64,000 nucleotides of DNA from an uncultured Gemmatimonadales bacterium (GTDB lineage Bacteria > Gemmatimonadota > Gemmatimonadetes > Longimicrobiales > RSA9): contig CAWCUS010000001.1 of NCBI GenBank assembly GCA_963798845.1, positions 631,850-695,849 of the forward strand. The letters are read 5' to 3'. The notes under the pieces are model-generated. The model did no database searches and was not told the origin of the DNA. It saw only the letters and a list, made by a program, of their open reading frames with translations. Position numbers and translations under genes: made by a program. Within the stretch, counting starts at the first letter, position 1, and every line of letters begins with the position of its first letter. Shown here in pieces: positions 2,933-48,537 of this stretch.

Positions 2933-5900
2933 CTAGCCTGCCACCACCCGCACCGCCCGCAGTGCGGCGCCGCCCCCCACGACCTCTCCGCTCCCCTGGA
3001 CGTAGGCGCCGTCAGGACTGAGCTCCCACACCGCCTCATCGTGAAGGACGCCATCCAGAATGGCGCGCAGCCGCTCGCACAGCTCCGCTCTCCGTACCGG
3101 CACGCCCACCTCGACGCGACGCGACAGGTTCCGCGGCCGCCAGTCGGCGGAGCCGATGAAGTATTCGGGCTCCCCCCCATTGGAGAACTCGAAAATGCGA
3201 GCGTGCTGGAGGAGCCGTCCCAGCAGGCTGACGATCCGGATGTTCTCCGAAAGCCCCGGCACACCGGGGCGCAGCGCGCAGATTTCGCGCACCGCGAGCT
3301 CCACCTGCACGCCGGCCTGGGAGGCCTCGTACAGCTTCGAGATCATGCGACGGTCGGCAAGGCCGTTCAGCTGGCCGCGCAGGCCGGCCGGACGCCCCGC
3401 CTTCGCGTGCTCGATCTCGCGGTCGATGAGCTGGAGGAACCGCTGGCGCATGTTGAAGGGCGAGACGAGCAGCTGGTCGAAGTCGCCCGTGGCGGAATAG
3501 CCGGTGAGGATGTTGAAGACCCCCTGCAGCTCCTCGCCGATGCCCTGGTCCGCCGTGAGGAGCGCCACGTCGGTGTACGTCCTCGCCGTGGCCGCGTTCA
3601 GGTTCCCCGTGCCGATGTAGCTGTAGCGGACCAGCCGCTCCCCTTCCCTGCGCACGACCAGCCCGGCCTTCGCGTGCACCTTGTACTTGAGCGGGCTGAA
3701 GACCACGTGGATCCCCGCCGCCGACAGCGACTTGGCCCACGCGATGTTCTGCTGCTCGTCGAAGCTGGCCTTGATCTCGATCAGGGCCACGGCGTCCTTG
3801 CCCAGCTCCCTCGCCCTGGACAGCGACTGCACGATCTCGGACGATGTGTCGGTGCGGTAGAGCGTAACCTTGAGCGCGACCACGTCCGGATCCTCCGCGG
3901 CCTCCCGGATGAAGCGCTCGGCGCTCGAGTTGAAGTCGTCGTGCGGGAAGTACACCAGCCGATCCGCCTCCGCGAGCAGGTCGAACACCGGCCGCCCCGG
4001 GTCGAGCGGCTTCGACCGCTTCAAGGGCGGGAAGCGGGCCTCGCCCTCCACGTCGAGGTCGGCGATCTCCTCCAGCGCCGCCAGGTCGATGAGCCCGTCC
4101 ACGACGTACACATCCTGAGGACCGAGCCACCACGATTCGGCGGGTGACTCGTAGCGCAGCTCGTTCACGATCATCTGGCGGAGTGGACGGGGCATGCGCG
4201 CGTCCACTTCCAGGCGCACGGGGGAGCGGAACGGGCGACGCGCCACGTCCTCCTCCACCGCCTGCAGCACGTCGCCTACCAGGGTCTCTTCGAGCTGGGT
4301 GCGGGCGCTGCGCGTCACGCGGAAGAGGTGTGCGCTCTGGATGGTGAGCCCCGAGTAGAGCTCAGGCAGGCGCGCCACCAGCAGATCCTCCAGCGGCACC
4401 AGGCGGCGTCCGTCTTCGAGCGGGAGGAAACGGGGAAGCTCTCCCGGTAGCTCGACGGCCGTGAAGTGGGCCCGGTCGGACGCAGGCAGCCGCACCACCG
4501 CGCCCACGGCCGGGCGCAGGTTCCGCATGTGCGGGAACGGGTGGCTGGCATCGGCGGCCATGGGCGTGAGCACGACCTCGGCGTCGGCGGCGTACCGCTC
4601 CAGCAGGTAGGCGCGCTCGCCGTCGTCCAGCTCGCGCCAGCGCAGGATCCGCACGCCGCGCTCCGCAAGCGCAGGAAGTAGCCTTCGGCGCAGCAGCCGC
4701 TGCGCGCGGGCGGCCACCTGTCGCGACCGGACCCCGATCAGGTCGAGCTGCTCCTGCGCCGTGAGCCCGTCCATGGTCCGGCGCTGGCCTGGCGCGGCCG
4801 CCTCTTCCTTGAACCCGGCCACCCGGGTCATGAAGAAGTCGTCCTGACGCGTGCCGAACATGGACAGGAAGCGGACCCTCTCCATGAGCGGGGGCTCCTC
4901 CGACTCGGCGAACACCAGGATCCGCTCGTCGAATCCGATCCGGCTCAGCTCCGCGTTGAGAAGGTGCTCCGGCGGAACGTCCTTCCCCGGCGCATACTCG
5001 GGCAAAGGCATCGGCGGCAGCGCCAGCTCGAGCGCTTCCGGCCCCGCGTCGGCCTCTCCGAGCTCCGCCGCCTCTTCGGCGCTCCCCAGGTCCGAGCGCG
5101 CGGCCACCTCGAACGCCGCCAGGGTGCGCGGCTCCCGCAGCGCGCCGCCACCCACCGCTTCCAGCGCTTCGGCAAGCGGCACCCAGACCATCCGCTCGTC
5201 CGTGTCGTCGGGCTGAACCTCGTCCGTGAGCCACACCTCGAGCGCCGGGCGCCCGGGGCCCCCGGGATTCGTGCCGAGCAGCCGCACGCGCGCCCCCGTC
5301 CGCCCCAGCTCCCGCGACACCAGCCGGCGCGCCCCCGCCTCGCCGCTCCCATCGCCGCACGGCACCCGCAGCCCATCCGGCACCCGGCGCAGCGCGACGC
5401 GCCCCATCGCGTACGCGATCACGGCCAGCTCTCTCGCGGCACGCACCTCCCGCTCCAGCGCCTCCACCTCCGCGTCCTCGAGCAGCTCCCGCGCCCTCGT
5501 GGCCGGGTCAGACAGGGTGATGCGGACGCCGGGCTCCTTCTCCAGCGACGCGACCAGCCCGTCCACCTCCGCGTCCTCTCCCGTTGTGAGGGCGAGCTCC
5601 CACAGCGTTCCCGCGAGCTCGTTCCGGCGGACCGTGAGCGTATCGTACGAGAGCACGAGCTCCCGCCCCTCTTCCCCTTCTTCGCCGGCGGTCAGCTCGA
5701 CGTGGCGGAGGCGGCAGAGCGTCTCCACCTCGAACGCCGGCTCGAGCCGCGCCGGGTCAATGAGGCCGCGCAGGAGCTCGGCGGCTGCCGAGTCGCCGTG
5801 GAAGACGCTCTCCGGCTCGCCCGGGCCGACTTCGGACTCCTCCACCCGCGCCGGACCCTCCCCCTCGCCGGTGCTCCGGATGTCGACGCGCAGCGCGCGC

Positions 5901-6100
5901 CCGCCGTCGGCGCGGTAGCGGAGCCGCACGGCGGCGGGCTTGAGGCCCAGCTCCCCGCCCGGCGTGTCGTAGTAGACGTCTCGGAAAACCTCGATGGACC
6001 GCCTCTCGCTGCGTGCGGCCATCGCGAGCGGCGCCCGGGCCAGGCGGTCGAGGAGATCGCCGCTCGGGACCTCCAGCCGGATCGTGCGCGTGCCGCCCAT
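2933..6100 (-). CDS. ppk: Polyphosphate kinase 1 with a ~375-aa N-terminal extension (CYTH-like domain plus degenerate Nudix-like segment)
   Basis: PPK1 core is recognisable from about aa 378 (LNAELSRIGFDERILVFAESEEPPLMERVRFLSMFGTRQDDFFMTRVAGFK ... HAKAGLVVRREGERLVRYSYIGTGNLN ... IGSADWRPRNLSRRVEV). The N-terminus has CYTH-like strands (FRDVYYDTPGGELGL..VRLRYR..LRVDIRS..VEESEV). I place the start at ATG 6100, which overlaps the upstream TGA (TGATG); the tool ORF extends to 6343. Confidence 0.9.
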   Translation of the reverse strand: MGGTRTIRLEVPSGDLLDRLARAPLAMAARSERRSIEVFRDVYYDTPGGELGLKPAAVRLRYRADGGRALRVDIRSTGEGEGPARVEESEVGPGEPESVFHGDSAAAELLRGLIDPARLEPAFEVETLCRLRHVELTAGEEGEEGRELVLSYDTLTVRRNELAGTLWELALTTGEDAEVDGLVASLEKEPGVRITLSDPATRARELLEDAEVEALEREVRAARELAVIAYAMGRVALRRVPDGLRVPCGDGSGEAGARRLVSRELGRTGARVRLLGTNPGGPGRPALEVWLTDEVQPDDTDERMVWVPLAEALEAVGGGALREPRTLAAFEVAARSDLGSAEEAAELGEADAGPEALELALPPMPLPEYAPGKDVPPEHLLNAELSRIGFDERILVFAESEEPPLMERVRFLSMFGTRQDDFFMTRVAGFKEEAAAPGQRRTMDGLTAQEQLDLIGVRSRQVAARAQRLLRRRLLPALAERGVRILRWRELDDGERAYLLERYAADAEVVLTPMAADASHPFPHMRNLRPAVGAVVRLPASDRAHFTAVELPGELPRFLPLEDGRRLVPLEDLLVARLPELYSGLTIQSAHLFRVTRSARTQLEETLVGDVLQAVEEDVARRPFRSPVRLEVDARMPRPLRQMIVNELRYESPAESWWLGPQDVYVVDGLIDLAALEEIADLDVEGEARFPPLKRSKPLDPGRPVFDLLAEADRLVYFPHDDFNSSAERFIREAAEDPDVVALKVTLYRTDTSSEIVQSLSRARELGKDAVALIEIKASFDEQQNIAWAKSLSAAGIHVVFSPLKYKVHAKAGLVVRREGERLVRYSYIGTGNLNAATARTYTDVALLTADQGIGEELQGVFNILTGYSATGDFDQLLVSPFNMRQRFLQLIDREIEHAKAGRPAGLRGQLNGLADRRMISKLYEASQAGVQVELAVREICALRPGVPGLSENIRIVSLLGRLLQHARIFEFSNGGEPEYFIGSADWRPRNLSRRVEVGVPVRRAELCERLRAILDGVLHDEAVWELSPDGAYVQGSGEVVGGGAALRAVRVVAG

Positions 6101-8694
6101 CAGAACGGCATCCCCAGTCCGAGGTAGACGCGGTCCTCTTCGCCCCTCGCCCACACGGCGCTCACCGCAGTGCCGAGCGTCTCGAAATAGACCCCCGCGC
6201 CGCGGCCCAGGTGCCACCCGCCCGGAGACGCACCATCCACGTATACGCGCCCCGCATCCGCCAGGCCGATCACGCCGAGACGCCCCTTCGTCAGCCACAG
6301 GTCGGCCCGGAACAGCGGGATCCGGAGCTCCGCGCCGGCCCACGTGGCCGCCTCCCCGGCGAAGCGCTCCCAGCGATAGCCCCGTACGGTGAGCCGCCCG
6401 CCCAGCCGAGCGGCCGCGTGGAACGGGAAGTCGCCCCAGGCCCGGCTCGCGCCGCCGCGCACCGCGAGCACCGGGCTGGCTCCATCATCCAGCGCGATGG
6501 GCAGAGGCAGGTACGCCGTCGCTGCCACGTCGGCGCTCGCGTGAGGCCCGAAGCGGGGAGCGGCGGCGGGATAGGCGTCCGCATCCACGGCCACGCTGAA
6601 GCCGTGGGTCGGCACGGCCGGGTTGTCCACCCGCCGGAACGACAACCGGCTCCGGACTCCCACCTCGGTGAGCGCGCGGGGCACCGGATCGAGCCTCACG
6701 GCCGGGGCCGCGGAGCCCCCGTCGGACAGCGTGTAGCGCGCGGTGGGGCCGATGTAGGCCTCGACGGAGGGCGTCTCCACCCCGAGCGTCGCCTGGATCT
6801 CCATGCGGTCCTGTCGAACGATCCCGGATCCCGCCGATGCCGGCGCTTCGGAGCTGTTGCCGTATCCGTAGAAGCGTGTGGCCTGGAGCTCGGTCGCCTC
6901 CGCCCTCAGACGCCCGAAGGCCGGGCTGTTCTCCAGGTGCCACACGGCGTCGGCGCGCGCGCCGAAATCCCCCGACCCCATGCCGTACAGCAACCGCAGC
7001 GTGAAGCGGGAAGCGAACGGGTCCCGCCGGAAGCCGTACGTCGTCCACGTCGGGCCGCCGCCCACGACCACGCCTTCCGCCGCGCGGTAGTCCGCCTCGG
7101 GGGTGAACCACGCGACACTGCTGCCCGAGTGCCGGACACGGTCGTTCCCGGTCTCTTTCGCGAACCAGGAGCTCGTGGAAGCCGCGGGCGGGCCGTAAGG
7201 CCTCCGGTCCACGCTCGTCCGCGGGCCCGCCACCACCACGTCCTGTCCACCGGCCGCGTACAGGTACGTGGGGCCGCCGCTCCCCGCATCGTAGAGCGTA
7301 TCGGCGCCGCCCCCCGCCACGACCCGGACCGCGATCCGCTCCGCTCCCGTGCCGCGGACCACCGCCACGTCATCGCCGCCGTGCAGGTCCAGCAGAACCT
7401 CGTGGGTCTCGGCCGGGACGAACACGCGGTGGTACCACGGCACGGCGCCATGGTAGAGCGTGACCTCGAGTGCGCCGCCGTCCCGCCGCAGCAGCTCCGC
7501 ATGCTCCGGCGCATCGGTCGCGTCGATCCTCGCGGCTCCGGCGAGGGCGCGGTAGAAGCGGGCCGAGACGTCCTGGAGGTGGTCGCGGCGCCAGGCCAGG
7601 ACGTGCAGAAGCGTGTCCGCCTGCTCCCGCGGCACTTCCGGCGGCAGCCCTTCGAGCGCCCCGCGGAGCACATCGTCGGTGAGCCCGGCCTGCACGGACG
7701 CCGTGACCGCTTCCCACGCCGCGCGATCCAGCCCCGCCAGGAGTCGCTGGCTGAGCTCCCGATCGTGCCAGAGCAGCCCCTCGATGGAGTGGAACTCGTT
7801 CTTCCACACGGCCAGCTTCGGGAAGAACTCCGCATCGACGAGGCGGGCGAGCACGCCGTCCGCGCTCATCAGCGCCCAGTCCCGGTCGCGGGCGATCGGG
7901 CGCCACCGCGCGCCCCACGCCGCCGGCTCCCTCGCCCACCGCCACTGGTCCCCGCCCCGGTCCGTGTCATTCACCAGGAAATCCACCAGCCGCGACGCCA
8001 GGTACTCCCTCGCGTCCACCCGGTCGTTCGGAGTCTCCTCCAGCAGCTCGAGCAGCCGCTCCGTTCCCACGATCCGGGAGTAGCCGCGCCAGCCGGGCGT
8101 ACCACCCTCCCCCTCGTTCGGCCGCTCCACCAGCAGCCCGAGCATCCCCGCGAACGCGTCCCGGAAACGGCCGAGCCGGGGATCGTCCGGCATCACCCGA
8201 AGCACGCCGGGGACCGCCAGCAGCCCGAGCGCGGCGTTGAGCCGGGGCACCACCAGCCCGGCGAACGGGTGGAAGATGCTGACGTGGTCCTTGAGCAGTG
8301 CCTGGAACGGCGTCCCCACCAGATCCTCGGGGAGGACCTGCACGGGGAACTTGTCCGTGCTCCGGAAGATGAACTCACGGCCGTCCGCCGACTCGAGGTG
8401 GAGCGTCCGGCTCTGGTTGCCTCCCTGCTCGACGGGCACCAGTCCGCCGGCGAAGGTGTCCAGCGCCAGGACCGGTACGCTCACCGAGCGCGTCCACTCC
8501 GCCCGCCGGTTGTCCCCGTTGAAGAAGCGACGGAACGGCCCGGCCGCGTAGCCCGGTTCCGGTGCCACCACTACCGTGTCCCGCTGCGGGGAGGAGCGCG
8601 GGTCGGGCTCGAGCGCTTGCGCGCCGGCGGCAGCGGCGGCCCCGAGCGCCGCGGCCCCCGCAGCGACGGGGACGAACGGGTTCCAGCCCGTCAC
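6100..8694 (-). CDS. Outer-membrane protein with a large unassigned N-terminal domain and a C-terminal Omp85/bacterial-surface-antigen-type beta-barrel
   Basis: GTG at 8694 overlaps the upstream stop (GTGA). Signal peptide (VPVAAGAAALGAAAAAGAQA). The C-terminal ~330 aa have an alternating beta-strand pattern and end in the OMP signature ...VYLGLGMPF (terminal Phe). The tool ORF (to 10038) runs on in frame through the DUF4956 gene region and is not believed. Confidence 0.7.
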   Translation of the reverse strand: MTGWNPFVPVAAGAAALGAAAAAGAQALEPDPRSSPQRDTVVVAPEPGYAAGPFRRFFNGDNRRAEWTRSVSVPVLALDTFAGGLVPVEQGGNQSRTLHLESADGREFIFRSTDKFPVQVLPEDLVGTPFQALLKDHVSIFHPFAGLVVPRLNAALGLLAVPGVLRVMPDDPRLGRFRDAFAGMLGLLVERPNEGEGGTPGWRGYSRIVGTERLLELLEETPNDRVDAREYLASRLVDFLVNDTDRGGDQWRWAREPAAWGARWRPIARDRDWALMSADGVLARLVDAEFFPKLAVWKNEFHSIEGLLWHDRELSQRLLAGLDRAAWEAVTASVQAGLTDDVLRGALEGLPPEVPREQADTLLHVLAWRRDHLQDVSARFYRALAGAARIDATDAPEHAELLRRDGGALEVTLYHGAVPWYHRVFVPAETHEVLLDLHGGDDVAVVRGTGAERIAVRVVAGGGADTLYDAGSGGPTYLYAAGGQDVVVAGPRTSVDRRPYGPPAASTSSWFAKETGNDRVRHSGSSVAWFTPEADYRAAEGVVVGGGPTWTTYGFRRDPFASRFTLRLLYGMGSGDFGARADAVWHLENSPAFGRLRAEATELQATRFYGYGNSSEAPASAGSGIVRQDRMEIQATLGVETPSVEAYIGPTARYTLSDGGSAAPAVRLDPVPRALTEVGVRSRLSFRRVDNPAVPTHGFSVAVDADAYPAAAPRFGPHASADVAATAYLPLPIALDDGASPVLAVRGGASRAWGDFPFHAAARLGGRLTVRGYRWERFAGEAATWAGAELRIPLFRADLWLTKGRLGVIGLADAGRVYVDGASPGGWHLGRGAGVYFETLGTAVSAVWARGEEDRVYLGLGMPF

Positions 8695-9770
8695 TCGTCG
8701 TCCTCCGCGGGGTGGTACGGCACGTACTCGGCCGCGGCGACGGTGGGCGACCACCGGTCCTCCAGCTCCCCGAGAATGTCCACCGGCGTCTTCTTCTTTC
8801 GCAACCGCACCGCCGCCTCGAGCGTGTAGACGCCGTTCCGCCCGCGCGGCGGCTCGCGGAAGAGCCACTCCTTGCCGATCTCGCTCAGCACCACCTCTGC
8901 GACCTGGCGGGCGGAGCGGGGCTCCGTGGTGTGGATCAGCAGGATACCGTCCGTCTTCATCTGCTCCGCGAGCTCCTCCAACCGATGCCGCACTCGCTCC
9001 TGCCCCTGCCGCGTCTGGGCGATCATCATGCTCGTGTCGCCCACGGACAGCAGCTCCGCGTCCTCGTCCACGTACAGCTCCAGGTCGTACTTCCAGAAGA
9101 CCAGCACCATCACGGCGAAAGTGAGCGAGAGCACGAACGCGATGTCCGCCGCCTGCACTCCGCACGACAGTCCGATCGCCATCACCAGAAACACGTGCAC
9201 CGCGTCCTTCGGGTCCTTCACGGTGGTCCGGAAGCGGACGGCCGCGACGATCCCGGCAAGCCCGAACGCCAGCGCCACGCTGTTCTTCACGATCATCACC
9301 GTGCCCGTCACGACCGGCGGCAGCATGATGAGCGTGTGCACGAGCGAGCGGTCGTAGCGGAGACGACGGGCGAACGTGTAGACCCACGCGATCGGCAGCA
9401 CCAGGAGCAGCGTGGCCACGATGGCCAGCGCAGTGGTGAGCACCCGCGCCGACTCCGTCGTGGCCGGGGTCACCAGCAGGCTTCTCGGACTCACCGCCCC
9501 CGCGTCCGCCACGTTCCCGCCCAGCGGAGAAACCAGCGCTTTCTGCACGCCGGGCACGAAGTAGACGCCCAGGAGCCCGATCCCCACCAGGACGGCGTAG
9601 TAGAACAGCAGCCGGAAGATCGGGATCCTGCGGGAATGCTCGGCGTAGCGACGACGATCCTTGTGCCGCCCCCCGCGCCGGCTCCCGGGCGGCGCCACCC
9701 CGGCGCCCTCGCCGCCGTTGCGTCGATTCTCCTCCCGCTCCGCCACGCGTTCCGCTCCTGTCCGGGCCAT
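8691..9770 (-). CDS. DUF4956-family inner-membrane protein with a cytoplasmic C-terminal domain
   Basis: Several TM helices and the DUF4956-typical core (GLAGIVAAVRFRTTVKDPKDAVHVFLVMAIGLSCG). ATG at 9770 is preceded by GAGG about 9 nt upstream. An alternative start lies at 9791. Confidence 0.75.
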   Translation of the reverse strand: MARTGAERVAEREENRRNGGEGAGVAPPGSRRGGRHKDRRRYAEHSRRIPIFRLLFYYAVLVGIGLLGVYFVPGVQKALVSPLGGNVADAGAVSPRSLLVTPATTESARVLTTALAIVATLLLVLPIAWVYTFARRLRYDRSLVHTLIMLPPVVTGTVMIVKNSVALAFGLAGIVAAVRFRTTVKDPKDAVHVFLVMAIGLSCGVQAADIAFVLSLTFAVMVLVFWKYDLELYVDEDAELLSVGDTSMMIAQTRQGQERVRHRLEELAEQMKTDGILLIHTTEPRSARQVAEVVLSEIGKEWLFREPPRGRNGVYTLEAAVRLRKKKTPVDILGELEDRWSPTVAAAEYVPYHPAEDDE

Positions 9771-9896
9771 TTTCGCACCTCGAAGGGGCAAGAACCGCGC
9801 CTCTCGCGGATGCGGAACGGCCCCGCCCCGCGAGCGCGGGACGGGGCCGTCCGTGCGTCCGTCCGCGGCGGGTGCCGCGGAGCGGAACGGTTGGGG

Positions 9897-11258
9897 TCAG
9901 CTCTCGTAGCCGGGGTTCTGCGTCAGGTTCGGCGCCACGTCCAGCTCCGACACCGGGATCGGCCAGAGCCCCTTGTAGGGCGCCCACCGGCTCCCGAACG
10001 CCGCAGCACCCTCGCCCAGCCGGACCAGGTCGAACCACCGGTCCCCTTCGAACGCCAGCTCCAGCCGGCGCTCCAGGTAGATGGCGTCCAGCACATCCTG
10101 CTGGCTGTTGTTCAGGTCCGCGGCCAGGTCGTACGTCGACACGCCCGCCCGCTCGCGGATCATGTTCAGGTACTCCACCGCCGTGTCCAGGTCGTTCTGC
10201 TGCGCGGCCGCTTCGGCCACGATCAGCAGGATCTCACCATAGCGGATCACGTTGAAGTCCTCGGTCCCCGTGGTGGTCGGGAACTTCACCACCTGGATGC
10301 CGTCGGGCCGCGTGCCGCTGAAGTCAGCCGCGAAGCGCTGGTCGTTGGCCTGGTCGAAGAGGTTGTAGATCTCCTCCGTCGCCCCGATCTCGAACCGGCC
10401 CGCGTACTGGTAGTAGAAGCCGTAGTTGTTGTAGTCGACCGCCGTGAAGACGATCTTGAAGATGTCCTCGGGCGAGCCCTGGTCGGCCCAGATCGAGCCG
10501 TAGTCCGACGCCAGTCCGTAGTCACCCGAGTTCACCACGCTCATGGCGGCGGCCTGCGCCTGCGACCACTTCTGCTCGTACAGGTACGTCTTCGCGAGCA
10601 GCGCATCCGTGAAGCCCGGGGTCATGAAGGTCCGGTCGGAGTTGTCGATCCCGGCCGACATCATGAGCGATTTGGCCTGCGTCAGGTCGGACTCGACCTG
10701 GGCGTACACCTCGGCCGCCGTGGCGCGCGTCACCTGCGACGCCTCCTCCAGTGACGCGGGCGGCGTCAGCACCAGCGGCACCCCGCCGTACGCCCGCACC
10801 AGCGAGAAGTAGTTGAGCGCACGGAGCGCGTACGCCTGGCCCAGCAGCCAGTCCTGGTCGGACTGACCGATGTTGTCCAGCTCCGGCACTTTCTGAATGA
10901 GCTGGTTCACCCGGTCGATCCCGCGGTAGGCCGCGTTCCAGACCCCCTCGATGGAGTAGTTGGCCGCCGTCGTGTTCAGCAGGTCGGCCTCGCCGAAGTT
11001 GCCGAACGTGCCGGTGTGCTCGGCGTTGTCCGACATGTTCTCCGACCACAGGACGTAGTCGCCGCCGTAGTAGTCGCCGCTCTGGAGCGCGCTGTACCCG
11101 CCCATGAGCGCCGCCGTGGCGGACTCCATGTCCTTGATCGCCACTTCGGACGCGATGGCGTCCTGGGGCAGCACGTCCAGTGGCCCCTGGTCACACGCCG
11201 CGACGCCTGCCAGGATCAGCAGCGCGGGCGCCATTCGGAATAGTCTCTTCATGGTCAT
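9897..11258 (-). CDS. SusD/RagB-family nutrient-binding outer-membrane lipoprotein
   Basis: Lipobox (LILAGVAAC). SusD-like helical/TPR pattern, a C-terminal ...RRLELAFEGDRWFDLVR motif, and a position immediately downstream of a SusC gene. Confidence 0.9.
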   Translation of the reverse strand: MTMKRLFRMAPALLILAGVAACDQGPLDVLPQDAIASEVAIKDMESATAALMGGYSALQSGDYYGGDYVLWSENMSDNAEHTGTFGNFGEADLLNTTAANYSIEGVWNAAYRGIDRVNQLIQKVPELDNIGQSDQDWLLGQAYALRALNYFSLVRAYGGVPLVLTPPASLEEASQVTRATAAEVYAQVESDLTQAKSLMMSAGIDNSDRTFMTPGFTDALLAKTYLYEQKWSQAQAAAMSVVNSGDYGLASDYGSIWADQGSPEDIFKIVFTAVDYNNYGFYYQYAGRFEIGATEEIYNLFDQANDQRFAADFSGTRPDGIQVVKFPTTTGTEDFNVIRYGEILLIVAEAAAQQNDLDTAVEYLNMIRERAGVSTYDLAADLNNSQQDVLDAIYLERRLELAFEGDRWFDLVRLGEGAAAFGSRWAPYKGLWPIPVSELDVAPNLTQNPGYES

Positions 11259-11270
11259 TTCCTTTCCGCG

Positions 11271-14200
11271 CTACCAGTTCCCCTGGAACCCGATCGTGAA
11301 CGTCCGGGCCAGCGGGTAGGCGTAGAAGTCCGTGCCCAGCGCGCCGGCGCCGGCGCCCGAGCCTGCGAAGTTGTTTTCCGGAGCGTAGCCCGAGTAGTCG
11401 GTCCACGTCTTCAGGTTCTTGCCCGAGACGTAGAACCGGCCGTTGCTCGCCCGGATCAGGTTGTTGATGGCGTCGGGCACCTTCAAACCCACCGTGACCT
11501 CGCCCAGGCGCACGTACGACGCGTCCTCGAGATACCGGCTGGACTCCACCCACGCGCCCGTGGAGCCGAACCAGCTCGGGCTCGGCGCCGTGCCGTTCGG
11601 GTTGTCCGGCGTCCAGTAGTTCTCCACGTGGACCTTGAACTTGTTGTCCAGGAAGTAGCCGCCGTCGTCGGAGTACTCGCGCATGGCGTTGAAGATCTTG
11701 GCGCCCTGGCTGAAGTCGACGAACGCCATGAGATCGAACGCGCCGAACGAGAACGTGTTCCGGATCCCGCCGTAGTAGTCCGGGTGCGGGCTGCCCACGA
11801 TCATGCGGTCGTCGGAGCCCGGGAACGTGGTCCAGACGATGTCGCCGTTCGAGTCGTACTGGATGTTCCCGTCGGCGTCCAGGTCCACGTACTTCGCCAC
11901 GCCCGTGGCCGCGTCGACGCCGATGTACTTGGGCGTGAAGAACACGCCCAGGGGCTGCCCCTCTTCCACCCAGTTGACGAACCCGCCCGGCGCGTAGAAC
12001 GGCTCGTGGTCGTACAGCGCCTTCACCTTGTTCCGGTTGCGCGTGATGTTGAACTCGGTGGTCCACTCGAACCCGTTGGCGTGGGACCGGCGGATGTTCA
12101 CCGTGTTCACGCTCAGCTCCACGCCCTTGTTCTGGATGCCGCCCACGTTGGCCAGCACGGAAGTGAAGCCGCTGGTGGCGGTCACCGGCCGGTTGAGGAG
12201 CAGATCGTTCGTGTCCTTCTGGTAGAGCTCCACGACGAAGCCGAGGCGGTCACTGAAGAGGCTCAGATCCAGGCCGAGGTTCTTCTCGGTCGTGGTCTCC
12301 CACTTCAGGTCCGGGTTGGCCAGGTTGGTCGGCGCCGTGCCGGGGATCGAGCCGTAGTTGGCCGAACCGTAGAGGCCGAGGTACTGGAAGTTGCCGATGG
12401 CCTCGTTCCCGGTCTCGCCCCAGCTGGCACGCAGCTTCATGTCGCTGATGAAGCCCAGGCCCTGCATGAAGGGCTCGCTGCTCACCACCCACGCCGCCGA
12501 CGCGGCGCGGAACACGCCGAACTTGTTGTTCTCGCCGAACCGCGACGAGCCGTCCGCGCGGATGCTGGCGTTGAGCACGTAACGGTCGTTGAACACGTAG
12601 TTCGCGCGCCCGAAGAACGACATCAGGTTGTGCGACCAGCCCGTGCCATCGTAGCCGGCCACGTCCGCACCGTTCCCGGGCCAGTTCAGGTCGGGGCTGG
12701 TGAAGCCCTCCGTCCGGACGAAGCTCTCCTCGCGCTTGTCCCGCTCCGTGGAGGCGCCCGCCGTCACCGACAGCTCGTTCACGCCGAAGTACTTGCTGCC
12801 CGTCAGGTAGCCCTCGAGCAGGTACTTGTTGCCCGACGAGTTCGCCACGCGCGACACGCCGCCCACGCCCGCCCCGTACGTCAGCGGGGTCAGCGGCGAG
12901 TTCCAGCGGTGCTCGCGCAGGTTCAGGATGTCGAACCCGGCCCGCCCCGTGGCGGTCAGCCACGGCAAGAAGGCGTAGTTGGCCGTGATGTTCCCGAAGG
13001 TCCGGTTCGTCAGGGCGTTGGTGAAGTCCTCCGTGCCCACGGCCACCGGGTTGGCGTACGACGCCGCGTCCGACCACGATCCGTCCGGGTTCTTCACCGG
13101 CACCCACGGCTCGTTGGCGATGGCGTTGGTCACCGGGCTGTCGATCGAGTTGTCCGACTCGATCCGGTCGTTGCTCTCGCGGGAAAGCGACAGCGACGTG
13201 CTGAAGCTGAGCTTGTCCGACGCCTGGAAGTCCAGGTTCGCCCGACCGGATGCGCGGTTGTACCCCGATCCGATGATGATCCCCGTCTGGTCGAAGTACG
13301 TTCCGGAGATGTAGTACTTGAACGCCTCGGTCCCGCCGCTCACCGCCAGCTGCGTGTTGCTGATGGGGGCGGTCCGCATCACGGCGTCCTGCCAGTCCGT
13401 GTTGATGCTCGGGTCCACCCCGAACGAGTCCAGCTCATCCTGGACGTCCTGCTCGGTGTAGCCGTCGTAGCGCATCCCGTCCGAGAAGTACTGGATCCAC
13501 TCTGCCGTGTTGAGCATCGGGATCTTCTTCTGCGCCTTCTGCCAGCCACCCGACAGGTTCACCGTCACCTGGGGACGGCCCGCCGTCTGGACGCCCCGCT
13601 TGGTCGTGATCATGATCACGCCGTTCGAGCCGCGGGAGCCGTAGATCGCTGCCGCGGCCGCGTCCTTCAGGATGTCGATGGAATCGATGTCATCCGGGTT
13701 CAGCCCCGTGATGGACGACAGGTCCTGGCCGCCCAGCCCCAGCTGGCCGAAGTCCTCGCGGAAGATCGGCACCCCGTCCACCACGTACAGCGGCTGGTTG
13801 CCCGCCGAGATCGAAGAGCTGCCCCGCACGCGCACCGTGATGCCGTTGCCGGGATTGCCGGCGTTCTGGATCACCTGCACGCCCGCGGCCTTCCCCTGCA
13901 GCGCCGCGTCCAGGCTCGCCACCACCCGGTTCTGGACGTCCTGCGTCTGGACCGTGCTGATGGCGCTGCTCACCTCCCGGCGCGTCTGCTGTGCGTAGCC
14001 GGTGGCGACCAGCTCCTCCAGCTCGATCGCGGTCACCCCCAGCTGGAAGTCCTCGGTGGCCGTCCCGCCCGCGGGAACGGTGATCGTGCGCGCCTGGGCG
14101 GAGTACCCGATGTACTCCACGCGCACTTCCGCCCGCCCGCTCGGCACCCTCGTCAGAAGGTACCGTCCGTCGTTGTTCGTGATCGTCCCGATTCCTGTGC

Positions 14201-14366
14201 CTCGGATCATCACCTGCGCGCCGGAGATCGCCTCTCCGGTCTGCGCATCGGTGACGATGCCACGGATCGACCCGGGCTCCTGCGCCGCAAGGCTCCGTGG
14301 AGCGCCGAACGCGGTCAGCAGAAATGCTGCCGCCAGCGACGCGAAGGCTGCGCACGATGTTTTCAT
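11271..14366 (-). CDS. SusC/RagA-type TonB-dependent outer-membrane receptor
   Basis: Signal peptide, then a CarboxypepD_reg-like N-terminal domain (IRGIVTDAQTGEAISGAQVMIRGTGIGTITNNDGRYLL). Plug motifs (IDSIDILKDAAAAAIYGSRGSNGVIMITTKRG) and a long barrel ending ...FTIGFQGNW. ATG at 14366 is preceded by AGGAGG. Confidence 0.93.
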   Translation of the reverse strand: MKTSCAAFASLAAAFLLTAFGAPRSLAAQEPGSIRGIVTDAQTGEAISGAQVMIRGTGIGTITNNDGRYLLTRVPSGRAEVRVEYIGYSAQARTITVPAGGTATEDFQLGVTAIELEELVATGYAQQTRREVSSAISTVQTQDVQNRVVASLDAALQGKAAGVQVIQNAGNPGNGITVRVRGSSSISAGNQPLYVVDGVPIFREDFGQLGLGGQDLSSITGLNPDDIDSIDILKDAAAAAIYGSRGSNGVIMITTKRGVQTAGRPQVTVNLSGGWQKAQKKIPMLNTAEWIQYFSDGMRYDGYTEQDVQDELDSFGVDPSINTDWQDAVMRTAPISNTQLAVSGGTEAFKYYISGTYFDQTGIIIGSGYNRASGRANLDFQASDKLSFSTSLSLSRESNDRIESDNSIDSPVTNAIANEPWVPVKNPDGSWSDAASYANPVAVGTEDFTNALTNRTFGNITANYAFLPWLTATGRAGFDILNLREHRWNSPLTPLTYGAGVGGVSRVANSSGNKYLLEGYLTGSKYFGVNELSVTAGASTERDKREESFVRTEGFTSPDLNWPGNGADVAGYDGTGWSHNLMSFFGRANYVFNDRYVLNASIRADGSSRFGENNKFGVFRAASAAWVVSSEPFMQGLGFISDMKLRASWGETGNEAIGNFQYLGLYGSANYGSIPGTAPTNLANPDLKWETTTEKNLGLDLSLFSDRLGFVVELYQKDTNDLLLNRPVTATSGFTSVLANVGGIQNKGVELSVNTVNIRRSHANGFEWTTEFNITRNRNKVKALYDHEPFYAPGGFVNWVEEGQPLGVFFTPKYIGVDAATGVAKYVDLDADGNIQYDSNGDIVWTTFPGSDDRMIVGSPHPDYYGGIRNTFSFGAFDLMAFVDFSQGAKIFNAMREYSDDGGYFLDNKFKVHVENYWTPDNPNGTAPSPSWFGSTGAWVESSRYLEDASYVRLGEVTVGLKVPDAINNLIRASNGRFYVSGKNLKTWTDYSGYAPENNFAGSGAGAGALGTDFYAYPLARTFTIGFQGNW

Positions 14367-14429
14367 GCGGAGTGCCTCCTGGGTGGTTTTGTGGAAGATA
14401 GGGTGCGATGCGGATAGGGCATCGTCCGC

Positions 14430-14459
14430 AAGGTACTTGTACATGAGGAACGCTGTCAA
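14430..14459 (-). promoter_or_regulatory. Candidate sigma70-type promoter for SusC/SusD locus 1 (TTGACA-N18-TACCTT)
   Basis: On the minus strand, TTGACA (14459..14454), an 18-nt spacer, then TACCTT (14435..14430), about 65 nt upstream of the SusC ATG. SusC locus 2 shows the same architecture. Confidence 0.45.
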
Positions 14460-14604
14460 ATACCGACTTGTGACGCTTCCGCGCGCCACCGCGACAGGGC
14501 TGCCGGCCGGAGCCCGTCACACGATCCGCGCCGACCGCCTTGCCCCGCGGGCTCCGGCCGCCCAGCTTCCTCCCCTCCTGCGACCCTGACTCCGGTACCC
14601 CTCG

Positions 14605-15759
14605 TTGACGGTGCTCCTCTTCCTCCTCGGCCTCGTCCTCCTCGTGGCCGGCGCCGAGCTGCTGGTCCGCGGCGCTTCCGGCCTCGCCGCCGTGGCCGGC
14701 GTCGCCCCGCTCGTGGTGGGGCTCACCGTCGTCGCCTTCGGCACGAGCGCACCCGAGCTCGCCGTCACCCTCGCCGCCACCTTCCGCGGCGAGCCGGACC
14801 TCGCCCTCGGGAACGTGGTCGGGAGCAACATCGCCAACATCCTGCTGATCCTGGGGCTGTCCGCGCTGGTGGCCCCGCTGGTGGTTCAGCGCAGCCTGGT
14901 GCGGGTGGAGGTTCCGCTCATGGTCGGCGTGTCGCTGGCCACCTTCCTCATGGGTGCGAACGGCCACGTCGGCCGCATCGAAGGGCTGCTGCTCCTGCTC
15001 GCGGGCGTGACGTACACGACCGTCCTCATCCGGCAGGCCGTGGGCGCGGCGGAGCGGCCCTCGGCGAGCCGGAGCCCGGCCCGGGTAGTGGCGGGGAGTG
15101 CCATCCCCGGGTCCGGATCGGCACCCGTGGCGTCTCGCGACCCCGGCCATCCGCGCGGCATCGGACGCGGAGGGAGGCCGCCCGTCCGCCGTATGATGGC
15201 CGCGAACGTGGCCCTGGTGGTGGGCGGTCTCGGACTGCTGGTCCTCGGCTCGCACTGGCTGGTGGACAGCGCGCGCGCGTTCGCGGCGGCGCTCGGGGTC
15301 TCGGAGCTCGTCATCGGGCTCACCATCGTCGCCGTGGGCACGTCGCTCCCCGAGCTGGCGACCTCGCTGGTGGCCGCCCTCCGCGGCGCCCGCGACATCG
15401 CGGTCGGCAACATCGTGGGCAGCAACCTCTTCAACCTCCTCTTCATCCTGGGAGCGGCGGCGGCGCTGTCGCCAGCGGGGGTGCCCGTGCCGCGGGCGGC
15501 GCGCGGGTTCGACCTGCCCGTGATGGTCGTGGTGGCGCTGGCCTGCCTCCCCATCTTCTTCACGGGCCACCGGATCGGGCGACGGGAAGGGGCGCTCTTC
15601 CTCGGCTATTTCGTGGCGTACGTGGCTTACGTGCTGCTGGCCGCGCGCAGCCATGAAGCGCTGGCGCCGCTGCGCATGGCCATGATCTTCTTCGCGCTCC
15701 CGCTGACCGCGGTCACGCTCGCGCTGGTGGTGCTGCGGGAGCTGCGGTTCAGGGACTGA
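14605..15759 (+). CDS. CaCA-family cation/Ca2+ exchanger (YrbG-like)
   Basis: Two alpha-repeat motifs (GTSAPELAV.. and GTSLPELATS..) in a polytopic membrane protein, with an unusually long Pro/Arg/Gly-rich central loop. Non-ATG (TTG) start according to the track. Confidence 0.85.
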   Translation: MTVLLFLLGLVLLVAGAELLVRGASGLAAVAGVAPLVVGLTVVAFGTSAPELAVTLAATFRGEPDLALGNVVGSNIANILLILGLSALVAPLVVQRSLVRVEVPLMVGVSLATFLMGANGHVGRIEGLLLLLAGVTYTTVLIRQAVGAAERPSASRSPARVVAGSAIPGSGSAPVASRDPGHPRGIGRGGRPPVRRMMAANVALVVGGLGLLVLGSHWLVDSARAFAAALGVSELVIGLTIVAVGTSLPELATSLVAALRGARDIAVGNIVGSNLFNLLFILGAAAALSPAGVPVPRAARGFDLPVMVVVALACLPIFFTGHRIGRREGALFLGYFVAYVAYVLLAARSHEALAPLRMAMIFFALPLTAVTLALVVLRELRFRD

Positions 15760-35639: not shown

Positions 35640-35666
35640 ATGCGTGGCGTACTCGTCCCGCCGTAG
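35640..35666 (+). CDS. Candidate 8-codon leader peptide (MRGVLVPP-stop) in the SusC leader
   Basis: ATG is preceded by a canonical AAGGAGG at 5-nt spacing, the strongest SD seen in the window. The ORF ends Pro-Pro-TAG. Short inverted repeats follow (CCTGC..GCAGG). Confidence 0.3.
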   Translation: MRGVLVPP

Positions 35667-35751
35667 CCGGTGTGCATCGTCACCAGACACGGATGTCCCC
35701 TGCCCGGCCCCTAGGCAGGTCCGGTACATCATCCCCCGATTGGAGGCGTTT

Positions 35752-38700
35752 ATGATCAGGAGATTTGGTTCGGTTGTGCTCCTGCTTGCGGCGCTGTTCC
35801 TGCCAGCAGGGCTTGCCGCGCAGGGTGCAGTCATCACCGGCACGGTCCACAACCAGTCGCTGGAGCCCGTGCGCGGCGCGGTGGTTTCCGTGCAGGGCAT
35901 GCGCCTGTCGACGGTGAGCAATGAGCAGGGCTTCTACCGCCTGCAGCTTCCGGAGGGCGCCCGCGGGCAGATCACGCTGGGCGTGGAAATCATCGGATAC
36001 CGCCCGGCCACCGTGGAAGTCACGGTCACGGGTGGCACGATGCGCCAGGACATCTCCCTCGTGGAGCAGGCCATCGCCCTCAATGAGATCGTGGTCACCG
36101 GGACGGCGGGAACGCAGTCCCGGCGAGCCCAGGCAGCCGTGGTCTCCACGGTGGACGCGGCCCAGGTTACGGAAGTGGCGCCCGTCTCGTCGATCACCCA
36201 GCTGCTTCAGTCCCGCGTCCCGGGCATGGACGTGCAGGTCTCGGGCGGGAATCTGGGCAGCACGCAGGTGATCCGCATGCGCGGCCAGGCTTCGCTCACG
36301 CTGTCCAACGAGCCGCTGATCTTCATCGACGGCGTGCGCGCGGACCAGCGGAACGACGCCCTCTACTACGCGGTCGGGGGTCAGCAGACCAGCCGTCTGA
36401 ACGACCTCCGTCCCGAGGACATCGCGGACATCGAAGTGATCAAGGGCCCCGCGGCAGCCGCGCTCTACGGTGCGGACGCGTCGGCGGGCGTGATCCAGAT
36501 CATCACCAAGCAGGGTCAGCAGAATTCGACGTTCACACAGACGCTCTCGGCGGAATACCAGGCGCTCGACTGGGGTTACTGGACTCCGCCGGACAACTGG
36601 GCCGCCTGCACCTCGTCCGCGGTGGCGAACGCGGACAACCCGCTGTGCTACGGCAACGCGGTGGGCACCCTGGTTCACGACAACCCGCTGCTGCGGACGG
36701 ACGCGATCCAGCAGGGGTACCGGCAGTCCCTGAACTGGTCCGGCACGGGCGGTGGCTCGAATTACGGCTACTACGTCTCGCTGGGCGGGGACAAGGGCGA
36801 GGGCGCGTTCGTGAACAACAAGCAGAACAACGTCTCGGCCCGAGGCAACTTCAACTTCCAGCCCACACCGAAGCTGCGCATCGAGATGGGGATGGGCCTG
36901 GTGCGGGCGGAGACGCAGCTGCCGCGCAACGACAACGACATCTACGGCTGGCTCGGTGGCGCCATGCTCGGCAGCCCGACCAGCCTGGGCACGACGCGCG
37001 ACGGCTGGTACGCCCCGAACCGGCAGAACGCCGCCATCGCGGCGTACGAGAACATCAACACGAACATGCGGACCACTCCGCGGCTTCAGGTCAACTACAG
37101 CCCGTTCCAGTGGATGACCAACCGGCTGACAATGGGCGGAGACCTGAGCCGCATGGAAGCGCACTACTTCTACCCCAAGAACGACAACGGGTGGTACTCG
37201 GGCGTCTACAACACCGGACAGATCGCCCAGGCGCGTCAGAACTATGACCGCTACACGGTCGACTACCTGGGCAACATCGCGAACGCGCTCACGAGCACGG
37301 TGAGCTCGGACCTGTCGCTCGGCACGCAGATCCTGTACACCCGCTACGACCGGACGAGCGCCACGGGGATCGGGCTGACCACGAACGCGGCCAACGCGAT
37401 CGACCAGGCGGCGCAGACCACGGGCGGCCAGACCTTCAACGAGGAAGCGCAGGTGGGCTTCTTCGGGCAGTGGCAGGTCGGCTTCTCGGAGCGGCTGTAC
37501 CTCCAAATGGCCGGGCGGCTGGACCAGCACTCGGCGTTCGGCGTGAACGCGGACTGGTTCTTCAGCCCGAAGATCGGCGCCTCGTGGGTGGTGTCCGACG
37601 AGCCGTTCTGGCAGGGGCACATGCCCGCGATGATCAGCACGCTGCGCGTCCGCGCCGCGTACGGGACCACGGGCCGCTCGCCCACGCAGGGCGCGCTGGC
37701 CACGTACACCGCCTCCCCGTTCGCCTTCGTCGACCGGACCGTGGGTTCGGGCGTACAGGCAGAGGATCTGGGCAACCCCGATCTCAAGCCGGAGCGCGGG
37801 ACGGAGATCGAGGCGGGATTCGAGGCCGGTCTCTTCGATGAGCGCCTGGGCCTCGAGCTGACCTACTTCAACAAGGTCGGCACGGACGTGATCCTGCGGC
37901 GGCCGCTGCCGCCCTCGGCAGGGTTCACGCAGAACCAGCTGGTCAACATCGGCGAGGTTCTGAACAGCGGCTTCGAGATCTCGGCCAATGCCCGCATGCT
38001 CACCGCGAGCAACCTGTCCTGGGATGTCCGCGTGGGAATGAACACCCTCCACAGCGAGATCAAGGACCTGGGCGGAGTCGAGCCGTACTGGACGGGCTGG
38101 GCGCAGCAGAACAAGGAAGGGTACGAGGCGCACGCGTTCTTCACCCGCCAGGTGGAGCACTTCGTCCTCGACTCGAGCGATCCGCAGGCTTCCATCTGCG
38201 GCACGGACGCCGACGGGCAGTTCGCGCAGTGCGCGATCGTGACCTCGGAGGAGACGTACAAGGGGCACTACATGCCCACGTTCGAGGGCAACCTGTCGTC
38301 CACCCTCACGTTCCTGCGCAACTTCCGCGTCTACGCGCTGCTGGACTGGAAGAACAACTTCATGATCTACAACAACACGGACCAGTTCCGTGAGCGGCAG
38401 TTCGGGCAGGGCGAGCGCTGGGTCCGTCGCAACGACCCGACGTTCAACCAGAGCGACGAGGAACGCCTCCGTCGCTTCGGGCCGTTCTACTACATGGACG
38501 AGAACGGCGCGTACCAGCCCCTGTCGGCGGGCAACGTGGACGACGCGTACGTGGAGCCGGGTGACTTCACCCGTCTGCGCGAGGTCTCGCTCCACTACAG
38601 CATTCCGGACCAGATCGCGGCCCTGGCCCACGTCTCAGGCGCCACCCTGTCGGTGGGCGGACGCAACCTGGCGCTGTGGACCAAGTACTCGGGCCCGGAC

Positions 38701-38799: not shown

Positions 38800-38808
38800 G
38801 GAGGAGCC

Positions 38809-40155: not shown

Positions 40156-40167
40156 TCACGACGACCA

Positions 40168-40193
40168 GGCGGGGCGGCGCACGCCGCCCCGCC
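40168..40193 (+). terminator. Strong GC hairpin after SusD (putative intrinsic terminator or attenuator, no U-tract)
   Basis: GGCGGGGCGGC-gcac-GCCGCCCCGCC, a perfect 11-bp stem with a 4-nt loop, 13 nt after the TAG. Confidence 0.5.
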
Positions 40194-40330
40194 GCTGCCC
40201 GTGTGCCCGGCGCGAGCATCGGCTTGTGCCGGGCACGCTGTCTTTCCAGGGCGGTTTGCGGCTGGTATCTCGTCTCACGGCCGCCGGCCGTCCAACCCGA
40301 GCTCACGTCTGCAGCGTCATGGAGGCGCCC

Positions 40331-48534: not shown

Positions 48535-48537
48535 CCC

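Follow-up and report, generated by a model that had tools for sequence, protein, structure and literature searches.

The closest described system to the genes reported here is found in Gram-positive bacteria, where Pel loci carry as contiguous accessory genes a CotH-like secreted kinase, a VTC-like polyphosphate polymerase and a DUF4956 membrane protein (10.1101/768473; PMC12345266). This trio of Firmicutes and Actinobacteria was noted beside pel and other polysaccharide loci, and neither of the two reports offers a mechanism for the set (10.1101/768473; PMC12345266). In the present work we describe three adjacent genes in a stretch of 64,000 nucleotides from an uncultured Gemmatimonadales bacterium (contig CAWCUS010000001.1, positions 631,850 to 695,849; this whole stretch is called the window, and its own positions are used below). 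They encode a DUF4956 inner-membrane protein (g1), an exported protein in which a predicted kinase-fold domain is joined to an Omp85 barrel (g2), and a polyphosphate kinase of the PPK1 type with a long N-terminal extension (g3). To our knowledge the linkage of an exported kinase, a polyphosphate synthase and a DUF4956 protein has been noticed in the literature and never explained. We favour, tentatively and with a little less than even confidence, the reading that the three genes make up a single conserved module, translationally coupled and spanning the envelope, which would be the diderm counterpart of the trio of CotH, VTC-type polymerase and DUF4956. Compared with that trio, both the polyphosphate synthase and the exported kinase have been exchanged, each for another enzyme within its fold class, and DUF4956 is the shared homologous part; the module of the window is a new version of a known, mechanistically unexplained gene trio.

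All three genes were read from open reading frames and their translations on the minus strand of the window, which has a G+C content of about 71%. Gene g1 (8691..9770) encodes 359 amino acids from the ATG at 9770; a deposited protein that is identical to it (100%; P0123) has 351 amino acids, which places its start at 9746. Gene g2 (6100..8694) encodes the exported Omp85-barrel protein of 864 amino acids, ending in ...GLGMPF, and g3 (2933..6100) encodes a fusion of 1055 amino acids whose domain matches are CYTH, Nudix-like and PPK1. A preliminary description of this DNA, made from the letters alone, had the three genes chained by overlaps, and both the coordinates and the reads of the junctions agree with it. 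At the g1/g2 junction, GTGA at 8694..8691 joins the GTG start of g2 to the TGA stop of g1 (...GAC GAG TGA), and at the g2/g3 junction, TGATG at 6102..6098 joins the stop of g2 to the ATG of g3 (...CCG TTC TGA TGG).

The arrangement is kept in relatives, a check that the preliminary description had called for. The synteny set comprised 85 non-redundant loci with g2 homologues, searched by tblastn with the three proteins of the window, and a gene was counted as a partner when it lay within 10 kb. Both DUF4956 and PPK1 were found in 25 of these loci, DUF4956 only in 9, PPK1 only in 3 (all contigs with 0-3 kb of upstream flank) and neither in 48; for the 33 loci flanked on either side by 5 kb or more the numbers were 14, 6, 0 and 13, respectively. 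Among the 25 loci with both partners, which come from many Gemmatimonadota metagenome-assembled genomes, the order DUF4956-barrel-PPK1 on one strand is present in 21 and the N-terminal extension of PPK1 in 22. On four independent contigs with called genes, the junctions consist of gaps of 2-25 nucleotides or overlaps of 1-4 nucleotides, and the flanking genes differ completely. It could be argued that these are unrelated neighbours packed into a compact GC-rich genome, where overlaps of 1-4 nucleotides are common, and that many g2 paralogues are indeed unlinked. This explanation is already disfavoured and seems to us highly improbable, because the order is kept across Longimicrobiales and Gemmatimonadales at 35-60% identity amid different flanks and because an independent, parallel trio exists in Firmicutes.

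In L009 and L079 the DUF4956 and barrel genes occur with 4-nucleotide overlaps and no PPK1 nearby, which suggests that their two products are directly connected. A neighbour-joining tree of the g2 family spreads the linked copies over several clades, with clades made up of unlinked paralogues in between, and single metagenome-assembled genomes frequently have one linked copy together with one or two unlinked ones. Since the unlinked paralogues are common, the barrel-kinase family has functions that do not need an adjacent PPK1 or DUF4956. The module is real and old, and the family of barrel-kinase proteins extends beyond it. Named g2 homologues belong mostly to Gemmatimonadota (Longimicrobiales and Gemmatimonadales), with a few in Krumholzibacteria and Latescibacterota.

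The part that the window shares by homology with the Gram-positive trio is g1. It matches the Pfam family DUF4956 (PF16316) over residues 127-268 with 48.5 bits, against a cutoff of 30.6, as the assignment of this gene in the preliminary description would have it. This core (8967..9392, minus strand) contains the motif LAGIVAAVRFRTxxKDPKDAV, near-invariant across 24 aligned g1 homologues, all 24 of which match DUF4956, and the central VRFRTAIKD is also present in DUF4956 proteins of Firmicutes and Bacteroidota. By eye, g1 starts with a basic N-terminus, continues with about six hydrophobic helices and closes with a soluble domain of about 130 amino acids, which is probably cytoplasmic. Aligned by hhalign, the profile of the Gemmatimonadota DUF4956 proteins and that of the DUF4956 proteins from CotH/VTC trios agree over 106 columns (probability 98.7%, E 2.5e-16), and on this profile evidence we take the two to be one homologous family. 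A tblastn search of annotated plasmids with g1 led to DUF4956 genes on Pseudobutyrivibrio plasmid pNP95 and on a Planococcus plasmid, both flanked by genes annotated as 'CotH kinase family protein' and 'polyphosphate polymerase domain-containing protein'; in the Pseudobutyrivibrio trio the Pfam scores are 140.8 bits for CotH, 133.5 for VTC and 43.4 for DUF4956. With these plasmid trios and the profile alignment, the link to the DUF4956/VTC/CotH neighbourhood that the preliminary description had drawn now stands on sequence comparison.

Apart from DUF4956, the module of the window resembles the known trio in having a cytoplasmic polyphosphate-making enzyme with a CYTH-fold domain, an exported protein of predicted atypical-kinase fold, and tight operonic linkage. 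It differs in that a stand-alone VTC protein is replaced by PPK1, of the PLD-like fold, fused to a CYTH and a Nudix-like domain, and the CotH kinase by a non-CotH kinase-fold protein fused to an Omp85 barrel. In the window the DUF4956 protein is also about 130 amino acids longer than that of the known trio, and the known trio stands beside polysaccharide genes whereas none is adjacent to the window module.

The exported protein carries the unexpected element. Pfam gave no match to the N-terminal domain of g2, either in the protein of the window or in 16 of 16 family members (E up to 5), and a profile search of PDB sequences with g2 returned no match to this domain; because the sequence searches are empty, the kinase assignment rests on predicted structure and motifs. 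Residues 31-522 were modelled alone with AlphaFold2 (predicted local distance difference test, pLDDT, 86.5; predicted template modelling score, pTM, 0.88), and residues ~40-385 (7540..8577, minus strand), which lie outside any Pfam model, were predicted by this model and Foldseek to be an atypical protein-kinase-like domain. The best Foldseek match in the PDB was CtkA of H. pylori (3akk, E 2.8e-6), and further matches were HipA (4pu5), PI4KIIα (4hnd), CotH of B. cereus (5jda, E 1.6e-4) and Fam20C (4kqa), a Golgi casein kinase. All of the 31 top PDB matches with E < 1e-3 (31/31) were atypical kinases of the HipA/PI4KII/CotH/Fam20 group or YihE.

Among 46 g2 homologues the invariant residues include K115, D243, D245, R246, D270 and D272, and D249, Q250 and W251 are at least 90% conserved. 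The segment D243-T-D245-R246-G-G-D249-Q250-W251 (DxDRxxDQW; 7942..7968, minus strand) is a putative catalytic loop and looks like that of HipA and PI4KII-type kinases. It is followed by the invariant D270-R-D272 (RDRD motif; 7879..7887, minus strand), which from its position would be the putative metal-binding, DFG-like element. The strand-3 lysine position usual in kinases reads FRSxDK. In common with HipA, CtkA, PI4K type II, CotH and Fam20 the g2 domain would have a bilobal kinase fold (Foldseek probability 1.0, E 2.8e-6 to 6e-4), a D-R-x-x-x-Q-W motif resembling a catalytic loop and, further downstream, an invariant pair of Asp residues; in addition Fam20 and the secreted CotH-family proteins act, like the exported g2, outside the cytosol. 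It differs from these atypical kinases in the lack of significant sequence similarity and in a Gln where they have Asn. Aligned by hhalign, the g2 kinase-like profile gave no significant match to CotH, and the CotH model PF08757 matched in 0/16 members; the alignment to HipA was likewise not significant, its sole aligned segment being the E. coli HipA catalytic loop GATDGHAKNF. Membership of g2 in CotH was therefore rejected and the analogy kept at the level of the fold, and we regard the domain as a new sequence family with a predicted kinase fold and not as a CotH member.

The family has many members: the kinase-like domain, searched as a profile against 1.84 billion representatives, gave 3,810 clusters (50% identity) at E <= 1e-3, 1,907 of them at E <= 1e-30. 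The great majority of the clusters have lengths of 830-930 amino acids, and therefore the kinase-like domain is fused to the barrel in them.

A full-length model of g2 was built with AlphaFold2 on the 46 homologues (pLDDT 89.5, pTM 0.87). It shows a disordered signal-peptide region, the alpha/beta domain at 40-385, a spacer of short strands at 387-500 and 16 long barrel strands at 525-860, and together with the translation and Foldseek it describes the whole gene as signal peptide, kinase-fold domain, beta-rich spacer and 16-strand Omp85 barrel with a terminal Phe. The predicted signal peptide (residues 1-30, ...AAAAGAQA/LEP; 8605..8694, minus strand; model pLDDT < 50) reads MTGWNPFVPVAAGAAALGAAAAAGAQA and has no basic residue in its n-region, unlike its homologues (MSDDRRRSTP..., MKSMKW...). 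Another start that would supply a basic n-region was ruled out, the in-frame Val codons just upstream being GTA. The homologues have classical signal peptides, with N-termini such as MSDDRRRSTPLLLAALGAG... and MKSMKWVWGLAAALALP....

The barrel (residues 525-864; 6103..7122, minus strand) has the VRGY motif at about residues 770-773 and the C-terminal Phe, and its best Foldseek matches in the PDB are TamA, BamA, Sam50 and Toc75 (E 6e-10 to 1e-7), so that the secreted protein with an Omp85-type barrel announced in the preliminary description is borne out by the model. By sequence the protein of the window stays under the curated thresholds, with 16.2 bits for Pfam Omp85 (threshold 24), 15.9 for ShlB (22.7) and 52 for NCBIfam Omp85_fam over residues 737-864 (200). 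Many g2 homologues have a precomputed PF01103 match, and a profile search of the PDB matched g2 to a POTRA-domain-containing, BamA-type chain of Fusobacterium (E 4.4e-8). Among the domains named in the preliminary description, DUF4956, CYTH and PPK1 scored above threshold, whereas Omp85 fell under the curated thresholds and NUDIX had no Pfam match. The spacer (387-500; 7195..7536, minus strand) consists in the model of short repeated strands at the usual position of the Omp85 POTRA domains. POTRA gave no Pfam match in g2, and no beta-alpha-alpha-beta-beta unit is present in residues 387-500 of the model. We consider the modelled barrel a bona fide Omp85 scaffold lacking POTRA, not a polymer porin.

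The preliminary description had suggested that polyphosphate is exported or displayed at the surface; in such a model the polyphosphate made by PPK1 would be threaded through DUF4956 and leave via the Omp85 barrel as an outer-membrane pore. The placement of three proteins in three compartments, the conserved synteny and the analogy with eukaryotic VTC, where synthesis and translocation are coupled, would suit such a route. Nevertheless the barrel matches protein-handling members of Omp85 (TamA, BamA, Sam50) and carries their VRGY loop motif rather than resembling polymer porins, the kinase-fold domain of about 350 amino acids, the most constrained part of g2, is left without a role, and no relation of DUF4956 to the VTC transmembrane domain appeared in the tests run. 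We therefore hold this export route to be quite unlikely. Its idea that the barrel protein replaces CotH survives in the sense of a counterpart, by virtue of the kinase-fold N-terminal domain, but not in the sense of a simple pore, given that kinase fold and the Omp85 scaffold.

Enzymes carried on Omp85 barrels are known from the 'type Vd' proteins PlpD and FplA, which like g2 combine a signal peptide, an N-terminal enzyme-like domain and an Omp85 barrel in one polypeptide. They differ from g2 in having a patatin lipase fold instead of a kinase fold, and in g2 a beta-rich spacer takes the place of the POTRA domain. The enzyme domain of PlpD was shown experimentally to be periplasmic, the Omp85 scaffold having been co-opted to keep an enzyme in place at the outer membrane (PMC11116518), and by analogy the kinase-fold domain of g2 most likely faces the periplasm too. 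The opposite topology would make g2 a type Vd-like autotransporter that secretes or displays its own kinase domain at the surface as a CtkA-like effector, with the linkage to PPK1 and DUF4956 reflecting co-regulation only. CtkA, the best structural match, is itself a secreted kinase of H. pylori, and the combination of a passenger with an Omp85 barrel recalls PlpD and FplA (PMC4104836). The spacer, moreover, has a family consensus IGGGGDDVLxD that resembles one RTX nonapeptide (GGXGXDXUX), degenerate in the window to AGGGADTLYD; this RTX-like GGxGxD motif hints at calcium-dependent folding outside the cytoplasm, and no HemolysinCabind Pfam match was found in the spacer of g2. The periplasmic position of the PlpD passenger (PMC11116518), the lack of a POTRA domain in g2 and the tight coupling of DUF4956 and barrel genes even where PPK1 is missing, which suggests a physical partnership in the envelope, speak against surface display, and we find it very doubtful. 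A text search of the 2014 survey of Omp85 and TpsB proteins found no mention of kinase or Gemmatimonadetes (PMC4104836), and nothing relevant was found in the literature on kinase-Omp85 fusions or PPK1-linked export systems.

The polyphosphate synthase of the module is g3. As the preliminary description had it, this is a PPK1: PP_kinase_N and the middle, C1 and C2 domains are all present by Pfam, and TIGR03705 matches with 625 bits against a cutoff of 465.85. The catalytic core with these four domains spans residues 381-1035 (2996..4960, minus strand). In an alignment to E. coli ppk, H435 and H592 of the E. coli enzyme have their equivalents in H809 and H966, and the equivalent of H454 is Tyr828 (3617-3619, minus strand; RYSYIGT in g3 and RYAHIGT in E. 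coli). In the E. coli enzyme H435 is the autophosphorylated residue, and H435 and H592 are both catalytic histidines.

The core is preceded by an extension of 380 amino acids. Its first half matches CYTH (PF01928) with 28.4 bits against 23.2, and the CYTH or triphosphate-tunnel domain was placed at residues ~5-205 (5486..6088, minus strand). CYTH was matched in 10 of 10 orthologous extensions from related loci as well (E 3e-9 to 3e-3). A word-indexed homology search with the extension gave only two proteins; the profile used was made of 19 extensions taken from related loci, and it matched the inorganic triphosphatase 5a60 (E 1.8e-4). The N-terminal EXEXK motif of CYTH is degenerate in g3, where it reads R8-x-E10-x-P (I-R-L-E-V-P), without the first Glu and without the Lys; in the aligned extensions R8 is invariant and E10 mostly kept. 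Positions 219-316 of the profile match the ADP-ribose pyrophosphatases 1v8u and 1v8i (E 0.007-0.01), and on this profile match a Nudix-like domain was placed at residues ~210-340 (5081..5473, minus strand). The REUXEE glutamates of the Nudix box (GX5EX7REUXEEXGU) are replaced in it (RRLVSRELG; …GEAGARRLVSRELG…), Pfam NUDIX has no match in g3 or in the orthologous extensions, and the domain is probably non-catalytic. The extension is accordingly best described, from its profile matches, as CYTH plus a degenerate Nudix-like domain; the earlier wording as CYTH-like was right for the first half but a CYTH domain alone does not account for the whole.

When the CYTH extension was aligned by hhalign with VTC-like polymerases the probability was 0.2%, which is not significant, and g3 has no PF09359 match; membership of g3 in the VTC family was rejected for these reasons and the analogy was kept at the level of the fold. 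The eukaryotic VTC complex couples polyphosphate synthesis to membrane translocation. As there, the synthase of the window has a CYTH-fold domain, here encoded beside a multi-pass membrane protein, and the coupling of synthesis to a membrane step would be a conceptual likeness between the two. In the window, however, PPK1 is the catalytic polymerase, the Lys that bacterial VTC-like proteins keep in their N-terminal R-x-E-x-K motif is missing from the CYTH domain, and DUF4956 looks MgtC-like and not like a transmembrane domain of the VTC1 type.

The sister loci contain a number of accessory genes that may bear on the function of the module; none of them (phosphoesterases, Hanks-type kinases or phytase-like propellers) is present in the window. 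At least six loci of Longimicrobiaceae and Gemmatimonadales have, between the DUF4956 and the barrel gene, a gene of ~390-440 amino acids for a lipoprotein with a Metallophos (calcineurin-like phosphoesterase) domain (L034:7288-8616, L038:1614-2801, L050:2739-3956, L039:8757-9926, L082:8773-9918 and L083:8229-9437), with lipoboxes such as …LLVSAC-G and …LFSAC-K. A gene of the Exo_endo_phos (endonuclease/exonuclease/phosphatase) family is found upstream of DUF4956 in L002, where it encodes a lipoprotein, and in L088, where no obvious lipobox was seen. In L086 a fusion of Ppx-GppA, the exopolyphosphatase domain, with Metallophos (554 amino acids; 6240-7904, minus strand) is divergent from the DUF4956 gene. 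The downstream PPK gene of L086 looks fragmented (610 amino acids, with small open reading frames between), possibly through frameshifts of the assembly.

Hanks-type Ser/Thr kinases are encoded in several Gemmatimonadales clusters. Those of L033 (3027-5630), L060 (4252-6852) and L080 (6253-8766) have ~840-870 amino acids, with weak TPR matches in L033 and L080. That of L037 (13584-14543) is a kinase domain alone, of 319 amino acids, in a locus that also holds two DUF4956 copies and a phytase-like beta-propeller. In L079 a hybrid histidine kinase is encoded just upstream.

The main rival of our reading, and a serious one, is regulatory, because DUF4956 looks MgtC-like and MgtC-type proteins are known as regulators and not as channels. 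In that case no polyphosphate would be translocated: DUF4956 would be a regulator or anchor embedded in the membrane, with its cytoplasmic C-terminal domain and the CYTH/Nudix-like extension as the means of controlling PPK1, and g2 would be an outer-membrane sensor or scaffold, possibly a pseudokinase, reporting across the periplasm on the status of the envelope or of phosphate. The similarity to MgtC (PF02308) is weak (E 2.3 for g1) but recurrent, with weak matches in 10 of the 24 DUF4956 homologues (best E 0.024; threshold 31.4 bits) that fall over the conserved transmembrane core. The MgtC family acts as a membrane regulator rather than a channel, and a DUF4956 homologue of Streptococcus combines an MgtC-type transmembrane domain with a cytoplasmic ACT domain (PMC12345266). 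Like the MgtC/SapB family, and like that homologue in particular (PMC12345266), g1 has an N-terminal transmembrane bundle followed by a C-terminal soluble domain; on the other hand DUF4956 scores far under the MgtC threshold and is a separate Pfam family. Degenerate EXEXK and Nudix boxes would be expected in ligand-binding regulatory domains, and the two-component and Hanks-type kinases of several sister loci would also be at home in a regulatory system. What counts against it is that the invariant Asp residues of g2, and a Gln conserved to at least 90%, are of the catalytic type and favour an enzyme over a pseudokinase, that the exported phosphoesterases of the sister loci suggest an extracytoplasmic phospho-substrate, and that the Gram-positive trio joins a secreted kinase to a cytoplasmic polymerase, which regulation alone hardly explains. 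On balance we rate the regulatory explanation as somewhat unlikely.

For the envelope-spanning module that we prefer, the following order of events can be proposed. The cytoplasmic PPK1 of g3 would make polyphosphate at the inner membrane, and DUF4956 would link this step to the extracytoplasmic side, whether it hands the chain over or docks and regulates the synthase. The kinase-like domain of g2, tethered in the periplasm by its barrel, would be the effector in a compartment poor in ATP; it could use polyphosphate as phosphoryl donor, or act on polyphosphate, and so modify a target in the envelope. The lipoprotein phosphoesterases of the sister loci might then reverse or trim the product, or act on the same extracytoplasmic phospho-compound.

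Several points weigh against this picture. The kinase-fold domain of g2 is related to CotH and HipA by fold-level analogy only, its profile similarity to either being non-significant, and the structures of g2 are predicted models. In the same way, the CYTH domain of g3 has no significant profile similarity to the VTC-type polymerases and its EXEXK motif is degenerate. The weak MgtC matches of DUF4956 associate it with a family described in the literature as regulators that work through protein contacts and not as channels. Roughly one half of the g2-family loci represent unlinked paralogues; among the 33 loci with good flanks these number 13. The weakest step is the translocation of polyphosphate across the inner membrane.

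A more specific version would have polyphosphate pass via DUF4956 across the inner membrane and there serve, instead of ATP, as phosphoryl donor for the periplasmic kinase anchored in the outer membrane. ATP is scarce outside the cytoplasm, which poses an energy problem for exported bacterial kinases such as those of the CotH family. We think this version unlikely as it stands; it would explain why exported kinases occur in two unrelated types of envelope beside a polyphosphate synthase and DUF4956. If it were true, the module of the window and the Gram-positive trio would stand for a general way in which bacteria phosphorylate targets beyond the cytoplasm.

The exchange of VTC for PPK1 and of CotH for an Omp85-fused kinase fold, in each case a non-homologous enzyme of like kind, with DUF4956 retained, is a classic comparative-genomics signature of functional coupling. 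The swapped parts turn a vague association into a testable hypothesis and give DUF4956 a concrete candidate role. Besides, the analysis uncovered a large family (~3,800 clusters) that no model had covered, and adds a predicted kinase-fold enzyme to the few enzymes carried on Omp85 barrels. Gemmatimonadota include polyphosphate-accumulating organisms, and the module may therefore matter for phosphorus cycling.

A further diderm variant of a DUF4956 envelope module may exist in Bacteroidota. On a plasmid of Hymenobacter volaticus (NZ_CP095062.1; L092:4751-9729) DUF4956 lies between a hypothetical protein of 359 amino acids with no Pfam match and a TolC-family gene, and a protein with a type IX secretion system (T9SS) sorting domain comes next.

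Upstream of g1 the minus strand carries a SusD-like gene (9897..11258) and, upstream of that, a SusC-like gene (11271..14489), beyond which a divergent gene for a Na/Ca exchanger is found (14605-15759, plus strand). Downstream of g3, genes for a beta-carbonic anhydrase and an S15 peptidase are convergent. The arrangement Na_Ca_ex, SusC, SusD, trio and Pro_CA is kept in the closest relative (L001) and not in more distant loci. The spacer of 126 nucleotides between the SusD stop and the g1 start (9771-9896) contains a GC-rich hairpin with a 17-bp stem and a 4-nucleotide loop (9815..9852, minus strand), which lies 45 nucleotides past the SusD stop, with a smaller hairpin ahead of it; as minus-strand RNA the entire spacer has a folding energy of -82.1 kcal/mol (z = -4.98). 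No U-tract follows the hairpin and a consensus terminator scan did not report it; the consensus scan for sigma-70 promoters and intrinsic terminators was uninformative for the operon, and an Rfam search of the whole window gave no match. Transcripts of the SusCD pair and of the three-gene operon may be divided at this hairpin, and because it lies between SusD and g1 the three genes are probably transcribed as a separate unit. The hairpin may be a boundary of the terminator kind or else a repeat element. SusC and SusD were considered as members of the module and rejected, because the pair is common only to L001 and the strong hairpin separates it from g1. No paralogues of g1, g2 or g3 were found elsewhere in the window.

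Two other groups of genes in the window deserve mention. On the plus strand (47917-49785, 50939-52285 and 53559-55553) a gene combining phasin and DUF2188 is followed directly by one for a patatin-like phospholipase, with HMG-CoA reductase and an ABC1/UbiB atypical kinase next; they concern storage granules and lipids and have no relation to the three-gene module. Also on the plus strand, the interval 35644-42379 encodes a second SusC-like TonB-dependent receptor, next an open reading frame of 448 amino acids, which has no Pfam match and occupies the position of a SusD-like partner, and after it an S9 peptidase. This second SusC-like locus, together with S15, M28 and M20 peptidases elsewhere in the window, suggests loci for peptide uptake.

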